Made by a program: the position numbers and the translations under genes. Shown in pieces: positions 26,558-31,172 of a DNA stretch of 64,000 nucleotides. How positions within the stretch are numbered: the stretch's first letter is position 1; each line of letters begins with the position of its first letter. The stretch covers positions 2,728,001 to 2,792,000 of the forward strand of contig CDLV01000005.1 of NCBI GenBank assembly GCA_001244265.2. Reading direction: 5' to 3'. Source of the stretch: Microbotryum violaceum (taxonomy: Eukaryota). Below the pieces are notes generated by a model. The model was not told the origin of the DNA and did not search any database. It worked only from the letters and a program-made list of their open reading frames with translations.

Positions 26558-27283
26558 GAGAGGGGGACCTAAGCGGGTTTGTGATCGAGTAAAGGTGACA
26601 CTCGTTTTCTGCCGACTACGTGATTACAGTAATTTTTCGGAGTAACAATGTTGTAATGACAGGGACATTCTTACCTACCAAGCGTATGGTCCATATACGT
26701 GTTCCGAGACCTAGGTCGATAGGTAGCTGCGGCAGCGTAACTGCTGTTTTCTTTTCTTCTCATTCTCAACCGTGTAAAGTCTCTGCTTGGCGTAAATGCG
26801 GTCAAAAACTCGCTGCGCATCGTTCCCTCTGCCGCCTGGTCGAATGCAAAGTAACTACTCGAACTGCTTGACACCGAACTTTCAAACCACCGATTGAAAC
26901 AAATCCTTTCTATCCCTCCTCAGTCCAGCTGCAGCACTAGATCTTTCGCCAATTGCCCCATCCAAACTTCCCCCTCGGGATTCGGTCTCGATATTCTGAC
27001 CAAATGCATCGCTGTTGTTGTGAATGACCAAAGCCAGACGCAGCTCTTGACCAAGTATTGGAGGAACGAGTTCGGTCAAAAAATGGGTATCAAGTCGTTT
27101 TCGCTCGCTTCGAAAGAGCTGGGATCGTTTGACAACTTTAGGAATAACTTTACCGGCGCCCCGAATCGCTTGGTCGAGCATCTCGACGATCCCGAGATGC
27201 GCATAGTCGTTGAACGCTAGTACCTTCATGTTCTTTAGCCCTGGTCCTCCGTTTTGATTCCGTACGATCACTGGAAGCACCGC

Positions 27284-28504
27284 GTGCAGCCGTGCTCCAA
27301 GAACGATAGACAGGATCAAACAGTCGTAGTTCAAGTCTAGAACCTAGAGGCAGTCAGCTCTGTCTTGCGAGCTCTAGTTGACACGGATGCTTCCGCTCCT
27401 TTCATCGCAGATAAGGAGGTGGATAAACTACGGTTGACACAGAGGAAGCTTCAGATACCCACATCTGTTAGTGTTGCAATTCAAAGTCACAGGGTCTCGC
27501 ATCCCGTCACTGAATTCGTGTGTGTGTGCCACTTTGTACCTTGAACGACCGATGGTCTACTCAACACGTCGTTTTGAAGATCGCGCCGTTGACGTCCTTG
27601 AAACTGGTACTGGGGCGACCGTTTTTAAAGCGACACTATATGCTGGTCGACTGTAGAAGGCGTCAAGTGCTGGTCCCGGATCCAACCTTACCCGACGAGC
27701 GTATCGATCTACTGACCGACCGTTCGGCGAGCGCGGTCCAAGCAGGCGTCCGGGCCTGCCTCGCCCGTCTCGAAGAGCAGCAGGCGGAGGAGTCTTACCT
27801 ACGGGCAATGGAGGCGAAGTTTCGCAGGGAGTTTTCGGATCGGTTCCCTGTGGACATCCCGCCGGTCTCGCAGTACGAGTCAAAGGTTCGTCACCGTATC
27901 TCGCTCAAGCCGGGCATAAAGAGACCGCGGCAACCGACCTATGGCACTCCAATGCGCTGGCGTGCAGCGTGGCGACGGTTACTGGATGAACACCTTGCGG
28001 CCGGTCGTCTTCGTCCATCCTCTTCGGAATACTCGTTACCGGCCTTCATAATTTCCAAGAAAGGCATGGAGACCGACCCTTCGATCATGCCGCGTTGGGC
28101 CAATGAATACAAGGTCCTTAATGCGGCCACGGTACCAGATCGCACACCGCTTTCCCTCCCGGACGAAATCTTAGCGGTCTCCGCGAGGGCGCGATTCTGG
28201 TCCAAGATCGACATGACGAACAGTTTTTTCCAGACGAAGATGGCCGAGGAGGACATCCCCAAGACCGCGGTGGCAACTCCCTGGGGACTCTTCGAGTGGG
28301 TGGTCATGCCGATGGGTCTGTCCAACGCGCCAGCAACGCATCAACGCTGGGTCAACGAAGCCTTGTCAAGTCTCATCGGCAAGAGTTGTTTTGCCTACCT
28401 CGACGGCATCACAATTTTCTCGAATACCATTGAGGAACCCGGACTCACGTCAAGGAGGTACTCGAGGCGCTGCGTCGGGCAGATCTGTATTGTTCGCCGA
28501 AGAA
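27284..28504 (+). mobile_element. Ty3/gypsy pol fragment: aspartic protease plus reverse transcriptase, decayed
   Basis: [10 protein letters not shown] (protease DTG mutated), LVLGRPFL, SKIDMTNSFFQ, TPWGLFEWVVMPMGLSNAPAT, YLDG in place of YLDD. Frameshifts; truncated at LYCSPK. Confidence 0.9.
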
Positions 28505-29220
28505 CCCTACGCGACGACGAATACGATAACGGCACGGATGAGGAGAGATGCGAACCCATTTTCCTCCCTGTGAAGCTCACTAACGGATGTAACAGATGTG
28601 GGTACCTGACGGAAGGCAACGGCGGCGGCGTAGACGGTGAGACGGTAGTGCGCAGCGATTTGACAGTGTGTGACGTGTGCGTAGGGCGGACGATTTTTGC
28701 TGAGGCTTGGGCGGTCGCCTTCACGGAAGCGCGAGTGGCACTGATGACTTGCCAGAGTCGCCTGGCTTCTGCGTCGAATGTCTGGAAGTCGAAGTCGGCG
28801 GGACTGGTACTCGGGTCGGTTTTGATAATGGAGGCGTCAAGTTCATCGGGTGACAACCCAGTCCCTTTTATTACATCGGATAGGCGGAGTCGCTGAGAGA
28901 GTTCCTCGTCCATGTGGAGTACTAGTAGGAGCATGCGGACCAGCTGAGTGTCGCTGACAAGACTGACGCCAAGTTCCAGTTGAAAATCACGAGCGGCCGT
29001 TGATAATTCGCGGTAGTCCCCCGTCTGTCGCAGGTTGTCAAGGCGTCGATAGTGTTGCCACACGTAGTCGGACGGCAGCGCGCGAAGTATGTTGGAAGGT
29101 GCTGTACGTCTTTTTTGCATGTGACGCGGCATCGCTGGAATACCACACCTTCAGCTCCGGGTCGAGGAGCAGCTGGCCAATCGTGTCGATCTTGTCCTCA
29201 TCGGTCTCGATGCTCTTCTC
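28505..29220 (-). mobile_element. retrotransposon gag-like fragment, decayed
   Basis: [20 protein letters not shown]...ALPSDYVW...LRQTGDY has a retrotransposon-gag-like W/LRQ pattern. It lies between the RT and integrase pieces. Confidence 0.65.
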
Positions 29221-29846
29221 GTTGATTGCGAACTCGATGTTACCCAGATGTCGGACCCAATCGTTCTGCTGGTGGTTGACCATGGCTCGCCAGGCCTGAA
29301 TGACGGTCTTATTGGTGCGCTCGCTGCGGCCGTCGGTTTCAGGGTGGAACGATGTAGACATGGCGAGCCGAGTGCCCACCAGCTTGTGTTACGCGCGCCA
29401 GAAGTACGATGTAAACAGCTTATCCCGATCGGAGACCATACGTATTGGTGGGCTGAAGAAGCGGTGCCATCCCTCGTGAAAGCGCTCGGCGACGTCCTTT
29501 GCGGTATCCGCGGCCCTGCTTGGTATCAAGCGCGTGTAACCTGACAGACGATCGGCGATGGTGAGGAGCATGTCGAATCCCTGGCTCTTGGGCAAGGGAC
29601 CCACAAAATCGAGGGCCATCTCCTGCATCGGCTCGTTCGGCACCCCCAAAGCATGTGACACGCCCGACGGCACTGTGGTGGCTGCCTTGGTCCGTTGGCA
29701 TAGATCGCACGTTGAAACGTAGGCTTCGCACGAAGAACGCAGGCCCGGCCAGAAGAAAGTCCGCGACATTTGCTGGAAGGTCTTGCGCGGGCCGAAATGT
29801 CTGAGCGCATCGTGGGCATCGTGTAGAACGTCCTCCCGAAGCTGTG
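29221..29846 (-). mobile_element. Ty3/gypsy integrase fragment (HHCC zinc finger plus core), premature stop at 29389
   Basis: [11 protein letters not shown]...FFWPGL...[46 protein letters not shown]. Confidence 0.92.
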
Positions 29847-31172
29847 GCACCGCAAGTACCACCGCCAATGCCCAAACCAAGTTGAGCAATCTCGGTCCAC
29901 CAGGTAGACCGAGTTGTCGAGCGAATATCGAAGGTGGATCGTAGGTGTAGACATAGGCGGATCCGCAGGCCTCGAGGACGGAGAGTGCGTTGACGAGGGT
30001 CGAGATGTAGGTGTTGAGTAAAAGTTCCATTGAGAGTGCTCGCCTCCCTGAGCCAGAAACTGGGACCACGACGTAGTGGTTGATGAGGGTAGGAGGAGGG
30101 ATTGTCGAGCTTCGAAGAATGCCTTCGAGGTTGGAGATCGAGTCCGCCACGGACCACGGATGACCGATCGATCCCCATGTCTCTTCACAGTCGGGCTTGC
30201 CATTTTCAAGAAGGTGGTGGATCGCGTGCCGTCGTATTGTCTGATCGTACAACGCTCGTGCAGCATTGTCTGCCTTTTCATCGCTCGTTAGCACGCTCCA
30301 CTGGTCGAGGTCGAGAGATTGACCGAGGAGAGCTGCCGACTCCGATCCTTGCGGTGAAGCGAAGAATTCGAGCGCAACAGTAGAATCTTCGAAGTCAAGG
30401 TGGATCTGGGTTCTGAAAGGTTGGGTTCAAAATCAGCTTCAGTCCGAGCTCAGTCCCAGAATTTGTGACGGACGAGAGCAAGACCTTTCGAGTCAGTCTT
30501 CCCCGATTTGCCGGCGCAGGCGATTGACTCGACGGCCCCATGGTTTCAAAGTAGGGGACGTCGTGACCTATCCCCTGGGGATCGTATTGATAATCACCAA
30601 ACATCTTGATGGGTAGGATCGCGGTCACAAAGGTATGCAACATGGCTTCCATATTGGTCAGGGCCGTGCCAGGGAGATACTTGGTCGCAATCGCCGAGTC
30701 GCGCTTGTTCCGCATCAGATGGGGGATCAGGGGTGGGGGGACCCAAGGTGAAGCGGCGATGATGGAACCTGCGTGGGAAGAAGACGGTTGGGAGAGGTGA
30801 TAGTCGCGTGGAGTTCCGGCGTAATTGTAGGGCAGGGAAGACGGCTCGAGCTTGGTCGAGTCAACGGCGAAATGAGGGAAGTGGGCGGGGTACAGTGCGG
30901 AGCTTGCTGAGCCTGTCGACGAGTCGCAATGGATGCTCGGCAGTACTGCTCGTGCTCGTCATTGGAACGTGGAGACAGGAGGCGAGCGAGGGTGCATGTG
31001 GGGGCCGAAAGACGACTGACTACTAGGCTGCAGTAGCTTCCGCGGGAAGCCGCGGGAAGGGCCGAGGCGATCGAGCATGTGGGGGTGATCGAGAGTTCTC
31101 CGTCTTGCACGACCCATCCGCAACTCTTCCCCAGCTTCAGCTCTGCTTCTGCCCACATCGCCAACCTTCAAC

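Follow-up and report, generated by a model that had tools for sequence, protein, structure and literature searches.

A gene on the minus strand of a 64,000-nt stretch of Microbotryum violaceum DNA (assembly GCA_001244265.2, contig CDLV01000005.1, forward-strand positions 2,728,001 to 2,792,000; here called the window and numbered from its first letter) is interrupted by about 2.6 kb of retroelement-derived DNA. The insert is composed of at least six scrambled pieces of one Ty3/gypsy (chromovirus) family. It is best read as a natural example of the repair-type retroelement insertions, a known class; its structure is unusually informative, and it is on record in two species. A previous reading, made from the sequence only, had described it as three fragments: protease-reverse transcriptase (PR-RT) on the plus strand, gag and integrase (INT) on the minus strand. 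These assignments are confirmed by Pfam for PR, RT and INT and, in case of gag, by a 92% alignment to residues 91-247 of the native gag-pol protein P0002. The number of pieces had been underestimated, as 27272-27359, 28507-28589 and 28590-28609 have to be added. We favour, with a probability of roughly 0.4, that host end-joining at a break inside the gene trapped rearranged chromovirus DNA or complementary DNA (cDNA), part of which was later deleted. The insert has the following features:

27272 to 29862/3: insert of retroelement-derived DNA, about 2591 nt; base 29863 is ambiguous.
27272 to 27359, minus strand: end of the long terminal repeat (LTR), its last 88 nt, inverted relative to PR-RT, the ...TTCCA terminus flush with host DNA at 27272.
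27277 to 27283, plus strand: left GCACCGC, inside the LTR piece and not host.
27360 to 28504, plus strand: PR and the 5' two-thirds of RT, P0002 residues 357-736 (Pfam, blastx).
28505 to 28506, no strand given: two letters CC at the junction of RT with the next piece, assignable to neither side; this junction is specific to the window allele.
28507 to 28589, plus strand: pre-protease (pre-PR) piece, 83 nt, P0002 residues 327-352 (blastx, 96-100%).
28590 to 28609, minus strand: filler of 20 nt, reverse complement of PR positions 27451-27470 with 19 of 20 letters matching.
28610 to 29222, minus strand: gag piece, native residues about 44-247, with a frameshift near 29088 (blastx to P0002, 86-92%; native gag N-termini).
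29223 to 29862, minus strand: N-terminal part of integrase, comprising the H2C2 zinc domain and some 80% of the core, interrupted by a TAA stop at 29388-29390 and ending in EFAIN (Pfam, alignment to five native integrases).
29847 to 29853, plus strand: right GCACCGC, integrase codons A-V and not host.

That the insert lies within a real, conserved gene, as had been proposed, is borne out by empty sites in three relatives. The search with the host gene returned three proteins, among them the intact P0122 of M. saponariae (478 amino acids). Across the site P0122 reads ...LLNLVWTLALLHVIVRNQ... and P0123 of M. intermedium reads ...WALALMHVVVRN..., so that the intact orthologues have WALA-LLH-VIVRNQ or WALA-LMH-VVVRN. 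The third empty site is in a contig of X19, one of four coded public runs (X3, X5, X18, X19) the contigs of which were aligned to the stretch at 85% likeness. This contig, which differs from the window by 5-12% in the flanks and stems from a diverged relative, joins 27271 to 29863 with nine other letters between (L-L-H on the minus strand). Nine host nucleotides (three codons, LLH) kept in the intact orthologues are thus replaced by the insert in the window allele, which across the left border reads ...AVLP/VIVRNQ. The ancestral site therefore had the nine nucleotides lost from the window and not a single GCACCGC; an empty site with one copy of the 7-mer had been expected, and the relatives hold nine nucleotides (LLH/LMH) instead. 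The host gene is arranged as follows:

26885 to 27271, minus strand: 3' part of the host gene, residues 349-478 of intact P0122, resuming at VIVRNQ (tblastn with P0122 and P0123; the X19 contig aligns to 27271).
29863 to 30411, minus strand: exon 2, ending in ...LLNLVWALA.
30413 to 30473, minus strand: intron of 61 nt, GT..AG, skipped in the X19 contig.
30474 to 30962, minus strand: exon 1, from the start codon (tblastn with P0122).

Since the X19 contig skips exactly 30413-30473 (GT..AG), it is a spliced transcript, and the intact orthologue is transcribed in this relative. The insertion splits the gene after codon 348 of 478; the open frame runs on through 158 integrase codons and terminates at the TAA stop at 29388-29390. 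Relatives of the intact host protein are numerous (256 representative ones at an expectation value, E, of up to 0.001, and 126 at 1e-30 or better), and the gene family is widely conserved and apparently fungal. It is such a gene that the insert knocks out, and an in-frame host-integrase fusion reading frame is created at the same place.

The borders of the insert do not coincide with the repeated 7-mer. On the right, integrase alignment and native copies place the border at ...EGRM/VVPAVPQ. Loose ends of other copies beyond 29863 translate in frame to ...DGVLYFEGRM, and the integrase stretch at the right border of the window follows ...YFEGRM in 10 native polyproteins, P0004 having a variant. 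Base 29863 is compatible with host (GCG) and element (ATG) alike. On the left, the flank contigs of X3, X5 and X18 end at 27301 and other copies begin to match at 27272. The two copies of GCACCGC on which the sequence-only reading had based its borders do exist, but both lie inside the element, the left one in the LTR end and the right one as the A-V codons of the integrase stretch PAVPQLRED. This motif was matched in 11 of 44 Microbotryum polyproteins (P0001 included; the other 33 had no match) and has the integrase reading in all 11. As both copies are element sequence, GCACCGC is not a junction feature, and the pair is best read as a chance match. Among 20000 random site pairs 2570 nt apart, a direct 7-mer was shared by 1.3% (20-nt neighbourhoods) to 7.4% (40-nt neighbourhoods). 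Deletion of 27284-29853 does join two open frames, as had been claimed, but the exactness of this restoration is a coincidence of phase. Without an empty site for comparison, short repeats close to the borders of transposable elements carry little weight as evidence.

No target-site duplication was found, as no word is duplicated at 27271/27272 and 29863/29864. Where a canonical insertion would be bounded by two LTRs, there is an 88-nt LTR end on the left and the start of integrase on the right, and in place of a 4-6 bp target-site duplication nine host nucleotides are missing in comparison with the X19 contig, P0122 and P0123. TG...CA termini directly on host DNA are seen at the left border (...TTCCA/host) and not at the right one. 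The lack of two LTRs and of a duplication, together with the loss of nine nucleotides, excludes normal integration as the last step. The combination seen here, no duplication, a small target loss and truncated element ends, is that of break-repair capture.

The insert had been thought to be devoid of LTRs and of RNase H. RNase H is indeed absent from the window, and the C-terminal part of integrase and the chromodomain are missing from the insert, but 27272-27359 is the end of an LTR. Peptides related to the minus-strand one of 27359-27272 occur upstream of gag in P0026 (the closest), P0004, P0007, P0138, P0145 and P0053. In P0129 such a peptide stands directly after the pol chromodomain; in this model the element breaks off at ...RCF(H) and gives way to copia RNase H sequence. 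Immediately beyond ...TTCCA, the agreement between the 5' context, that of P0129 and the window is lost. A sequence that is present at either end of the element, ends in CA and has a very high copy number is an LTR end. To read the TGG... at 27272 as a primer-binding site or as the 5' TG start of an LTR was rejected, because the orientation is minus and the match is to the 3' end of the LTR. The piece is joined to PR in inverted orientation by a non-homologous junction.

The identity of the other pieces is supported by Pfam matches to aspartyl protease (weak, E 3.9e-4) and RVT_1 (E 6.8e-14) on the plus strand and to Integrase_H2C2 (E 1.6e-19) plus a weak rve match on the minus strand. In blastx, 27362-28502 (plus) corresponds to P0002 residues 357-736, the pre-PR match spans 28507-28584 (plus), 29241-28611 (minus) corresponds to gag residues about 37/44-247, and 29862-29221 (minus) extends from the start of integrase to ...EFAIN. 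The gag piece has no Pfam match but aligns to P0002, and was therefore assigned as gag by position; in P0002 itself the Retrotrans_gag match is weak (residues 69-143, E 0.01, under the cut-off). The RT piece carries YLDG in place of YLDD, and the PR-RT piece changes frame near 27520 and 28440. A (GT)n run at 27516-27530 coincides with the PR/RT frame change and is two letters shorter in all X3 and in most X5 and X19 contigs; the frameshift of the window may here be a microsatellite length variant or an assembly slip.

Native copies diverge from the window before 27360 and after 28504, and in the contigs other copies stop matching at 27272, 27333-27359/27360, 28504, 28511, 28610, 29220 and 29863. 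The break points from contigs and from protein mapping are thus the same, and those near 28504 and 29220, which the sequence-only reading had already named, are exactly where the loose ends of other genomic copies begin. In native copies, 28580/28585 is followed by 9-14 letters and then by 27360, as seen from joints that go back in X18 and X19 and from loose ends in X3 and X5. With the window letters up to 28589 taken into account, the pre-PR piece ends, in native copies, 3-6 nt before PR begins at 27360. The filler is the sole internal repeat found in the insert, and a match of this kind arose in 2 of 400 shuffles of the insert. The word CACTAAC (7 nt) stands at the end of the pre-PR piece and beside the template of the filler, a possible overlap; at all junctions readable from loose ends and native proteins the overlap is 0-1 nt. 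The filler has G (28605) where PR position 27455 now has A, a change of V to I; other copies have G at 27455 and the sister species introduced below has I. As the filler keeps the older G, it was copied before the change at 27455 and before the split of the two species. Two variants touch the gag piece: one X3 contig of single-copy depth (4.4) changes strand within 29118-29153, with a 7-nt inverted word nearby (GAAGGTG at 29095, CACCTTC at 29146), and the X18 contig of the locus has 21 letters fewer between 28864 and 29146.

All pieces stem from one source family. A search with the RT piece returned 443 proteins at E up to 0.001, the best of which are Microbotryum gag-pol models. An intact relative, P0008, shows PR (347-457), RT (589-755), RNase H (820-952), H2C2 (1042-1095), rve (1113-1209), SH3 (1329-1396) and Chromo (1422-1468); the order PR-RT-RNaseH-INT with a C-terminal chromodomain identifies the source as a chromovirus, the window pieces being 83-96% identical to P0002 and P0003. 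Each piece is closest to the P0002 subfamily (88-96%, versus 78-85% to P0003). P0002 itself was considered as a carrier of the junction between INT and gag and rejected, since its N-terminus is native gag, RNDRYFKREKSI. By contig depth, between tens and hundreds of copies of the family are present in the genome. The insert is covered at several- to 90-fold the flank depth, which points to a multi-copy family, and at 27299 the depth is 346 versus 4.4, 11419 versus 262, 95 versus 5 and 33698 versus 107 in the flank (four runs; about 20- to 300-fold). An abundance of Gypsy-like elements in Microbotryum is reported (PMC5381629). Transitions predominate among the differences between the window copy and other copies in X3, X5, X18 and X19, accounting in X3, for instance, for 119 of 166 changed places; this excess fits the hypermutation resembling repeat-induced point mutation that has been described for the genus (PMC5381629).

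The orthologous locus of M. silenes-dioicae is covered by two adjacent gene models, P0001 (BQ5605_C007g04742) and P0121 (04743). At its N-terminus P0001 has 44 of 45 residues in common with the plus-strand translation of the left flank (27083-27220). This is followed, all on one strand, by PR-RT, the remainder of RT and RNase H, INT (from ...EGRMVVPAVPQ to EFAIN), gag 44-247, the C-terminal part of gag and pre-PR. The rest of RT, RNase H and the gag C-terminal part with its CFKC..H..C knuckle are absent from the window. P0121 begins with the N-terminal half of the host protein (99% identical to that of the window) and continues with VVLAVPQ...EFAIN and gag, as does the minus strand of the window. 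The right junction and the junction between integrase and gag are therefore common to the window and the sister models. Furthermore, P0001 and P0121 skip the same 28 residues around the window stop at 29388, and both read the frameshifted TFQHTSRAA. From the shared INT/gag junction, stop region and frameshift it follows that both arms were copied from one source which was already defective and rearranged. VVPAV with its native P is found in the plus arm; both species have L instead of this P in the inverted arm, which must therefore be older than their split. Gene conversion as an explanation of the near-identical sister arms was dropped, as the sister residues are in the native state, e.g. 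MQEV.

Judged by these models, the sister allele would consist of a long plus-strand arm and an inverted INT/gag arm and be partly palindromic. The junction 28504/28507 is not in the sister allele, which retains the missing RT-RNaseH-INT-gag stretch. The window allele accordingly looks like the sister allele minus about 700 codons between 28504 and 28507, that is, a later deletion derivative. What the two sister species seem to preserve is a long, partly palindromic allele and a derivative of it shortened by deletion, a pair which could show how such scars decay.

Is the mosaic a mobile unit, or an error of assembly? The same junctions at many loci, which the sequence-only reading had named as evidence against itself, were not found among the annotated proteins and the four runs. 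A search with 116 residues across the INT/gag junction returned 85 proteins, and both sides were matched only in P0121 and P0001 (72% cover, 100% identity). With BLASTP over 171 fetched proteins, 150 of which gave some match, the junction was bridged at 100% identity in two, both at this locus. Four other proteins (P0046, P0085, P0065, P0089) overlap it at 31-53%, as ordinary integrases or weak matches. The 64-kb window holds no second copy of the mosaic or of its parts, and none of the metagenome contigs scanned contained its first 30 nt as they stand in the insert.

The stretch is represented at least in part in 20 of 24 public runs listed, and by half of its length or more in 18 (7 studies); none of the runs containing it is on record as RNA. 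The right border is spanned by contigs of X3 (29767-30900), X5 (29739-30704) and X18 (29626-30337), thus in three runs from three studies. The junction of gag and INT is spanned without a difference by an X18 contig (29117-29624) at a depth of 6.2, close to that of the flank (about 5) and hence single-copy. Left-flank contigs of X3, X5 and X18 reach 27301, 30 letters into the insert, while the rule for bridging was 31. This fits a repeat beginning exactly at 27272, provided that the contigs were assembled from 31-letter words. In X18 the bin 28610-28763 is free of contig cover. Spanning of the junctions, by which the sequence-only reading had wished to be judged, is thus given for the right border and for gag/INT; the left border and the region 28504-28610 are taken up below. 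That the whole is an artefact of assembly or a mobile non-autonomous mosaic is hardly credible. The family is highly repeated and three inner junctions have no bridging contig among those shown, but the bridged junctions just named recur in gene models of an independent assembly, the X18 contig is identical and at single-copy depth, and no second copy or further bridging protein was found.

How did this structure arise? According to the reading we favour, a chromosome break would have occurred inside the conserved gene in the ancestor of the window Microbotryum and M. silenes-dioicae. Host end-joining would have sealed the break and thereby trapped extrachromosomal DNA of one defective chromovirus, most likely an aberrant cDNA. 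The trapped DNA would already have been rearranged, with a unit-length, circularly permuted PR-RT-RNaseH-INT/gag-prePR block followed by an inverted INT/gag copy. The 88-nt LTR end would have capped one side as the natural terminus meeting the host, nine host bases being lost and no duplication being made. In the window lineage, a deletion from mid-RT to the end of gag, and hence of one palindrome arm, would then have left the 2.6-kb remnant. That the break came first, that the donor was cDNA, and the order of the events are what we infer.

Several findings are well accommodated by this reading. In the plus-strand block the native order is cyclically rotated, and on the minus strand INT comes before gag. 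By our own reasoning we could find no path of one or two steps that leads there from a native element; a single inversion with a break point between pre-PR and PR was tried and fails to restore one. For two independent break points in an element of roughly 4.5 kb, a distance of at most 6 nt is estimated to occur in about 0.3% of cases. That the pre-PR piece ends almost where PR starts, and that the host is met by the exact terminus of the LTR, fits extrachromosomal DNA, namely a unit-length circular or tandem INT/gag-deleted piece together with a natural cDNA end. The case would be a natural and dated one, in a plant-pathogenic fungus, of a retroelement insertion in a gene by repair and not by transposition.

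A number of points weigh against this scenario. Neither cDNA-only nucleotides (none at 27272) nor a spliced form nor RNA evidence was found. With a stop and frameshifts in its pieces, the donor was already dead, which a genomic copy would explain too. An exact ...CA terminus on host DNA is of the kind that integrase generates. In yeast, captured LTR ends often carry extra cDNA-only letters (40 of 56 in the data given in PMC11372161), and none are seen here; in mouse, the insertions described mostly show 1-7 nt of microhomology (PMC4516963), here 0-1 nt. The junctions 28504/28507, 28589/28590 and 28609/28610 are bridged by no contig shown for the four runs, the region 28504-28610 being unspanned, and the left border is bridged by 30 letters only, one under the rule of 31. 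Finally, the sister allele is known from two protein models only; from these we infer the ancestral allele, as well as an LTR piece and a filler in the sister species.

The main rival, doubtful in our view yet not separable from trapping by end-joining with the present data, is a one-ended integrase event. Integrase would have joined the U5 (unique 5') ...CA end of an aberrant cDNA, rearranged or incomplete, to the host, and host enzymes the non-LTR end, thereby removing nine nucleotides; a later deletion would follow as above. The left border, an exact LTR terminus with no letters added or lost, is what this predicts, and aberrant retroviral proviruses are described as usually having one normal end, the other being truncated or joined to further viral DNA in either orientation, with flanking host DNA deleted (PMC5041404). 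However, a one-ended event leaves no duplication that could be checked, so that nothing separates it from blunt capture of a cDNA end, and the LTR piece is only 88 nt long and itself joined, inverted and non-homologously, to PR; the integrated end would thus be a small fragment. Reverse transcription could also be dispensed with if the break was repaired by DNA synthesis with template switches, at first from dead tandem genomic copies and then from the new insert. We consider this unlikely. The pieces share inactivating lesions, the INT/gag junction is in both arms, tens to hundreds of genomic family copies were available, and filler and inverted arm could have been copied from the same locus, CACTAAC providing 7 nt at the pre-PR end and beside the filler template. 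Against it, the overlaps are otherwise 0-1 nt, whereas microhomology-driven switching is expected to show more. Also, the two bridging proteins among the 171 both belong to this locus and there is no model of a donor locus, and a border exactly on the LTR terminus would be a coincidence.

Distinctly unlikely is an ordinary integrase insertion of a full element in minus orientation, followed by tandem duplication, inversion and deletions which removed the other LTR, the duplication and nine host nucleotides. Such a history would account for the perfect LTR end beside host DNA at the left, and later change is real, as the alleles of the two species differ by more than 2 kb. However, no one or two inversions or deletions turn the present pieces into a native element, again by our own reasoning, and a deletion would have had to stop 9 nt into the host (14 nt if a 5-nt duplication is counted). 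Rather improbable, too, is that the plus strand of the ancestral insert was a single aberrant reverse-transcription product caught at the break. It would have begun with minus-strand strong-stop DNA, the 88 nt TGGAAG... being the exact complement of the U5 end. It would have missed the normal first jump and served as a primer on minus-strand cDNA, at a purine-rich internal site immediately before protease. Synthesis would then have gone once fully round a tandem or circular INT/gag-deleted template and snapped back to copy INT/gag in reverse. Such a course would explain the left border as a natural cDNA 5' end, the start of PR 3-6 nt from the pre-PR end and the alternating polarity; if true, the insert would be a natural fossil of a failed strand transfer in a fungal chromovirus. 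Very improbable is the version of the sequence-only reading, in which three separate cDNA pieces were captured simultaneously and 7-bp direct repeats on either side mark the break. The 7-mers exist and removal of 27284-29853 joins two open frames, but the 7-mers are element sequence with a chance of 1-7%, the ancestral site seen in the orthologues is another one, the pieces number at least six, and one of the junctions stems from a later deletion. Its broader statement, that the insert is a break-repair scar and not a transposition, holds as the best reading in view of the missing duplication and bounding LTRs, though not in the simple form of three cDNA pieces captured together.

Capture of retroelement DNA at breaks is mostly known from induced breaks in yeast and mouse, and the insert provides a natural example. 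Moore and Haber 1996 and Teng, Kim and Gabriel 1996 are the original reports of Ty1 cDNA capture in yeast. There, as here, DNA of an LTR retroelement is placed at a break without target duplication, the fragments are truncated, LTR ends are favoured and more than one donor is possible (PMC11372161); the 3' LTR region is described as a hotspot for Ty1 cDNA caught at breaks, and trimming of the target is common (PMC11372161). The yeast inserts treated in this source are short (tens to hundreds of nt) and laboratory-induced, whereas the present one is a multi-kb natural allele, fixed, in two species. It also differs by its inverted duplication and circularly permuted block and by an LTR end that lacks cDNA-only letters. 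In mouse zygotes, breaks are repaired with reverse-transcription products (MuERV-L and MaLR at Cas9 cuts, and two natural MuERV-L cases), which likewise are truncated internal pieces without LTRs or duplications (PMC4516963). Several pieces per break, in-frame fusions and the detection of natural cases by species comparison are further likenesses (PMC4516963). Apart from the microhomology mentioned, a difference is that the parts of this source drawn upon here describe neither an exact LTR terminus at a border nor a palindrome (PMC4516963).

Aberrant one-ended integration of retroviruses (avian sarcoma-leukosis virus and human immunodeficiency virus type 1, with a bad end, integrase inhibitors or a weak integrase) resembles the insert in having one normal LTR-host junction, an irregular other end and a host deletion (PMC5041404). 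Those were experimental infections, and the normal end of the window allele is an 88-nt scrap of LTR on protease. With an ordinary chromovirus insertion the allele shares pieces of a family that has gag, PR, RT, RNase H, integrase (H2C2, core, SH3) and a chromodomain, but it is not bounded by two LTRs, has no duplication, shows non-native order and orientation, and misses RNase H, the C-terminal part of integrase and the chromodomain.

Some observations concern the host gene itself. No Pfam family was assigned to either host half, to P0122 or to seven distant relatives. In the protein Atlas the host protein matched only clusters of hypothetical proteins with scores of at most 0.82, and structure matches had TM (template modelling) values of at most 0.36. 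Without the 61-nt intron, the minus strand of 29391-30962 is one open frame consisting of the start codon, two exons and 158 integrase codons; the equivalent host-integrase fusion is annotated in the sister species as a predicted protein of 576 amino acids (P0121). In contigs of X5 and X18, 33 nt of host exon 1 (30705-30737) are skipped, which constitutes an in-frame length variant.

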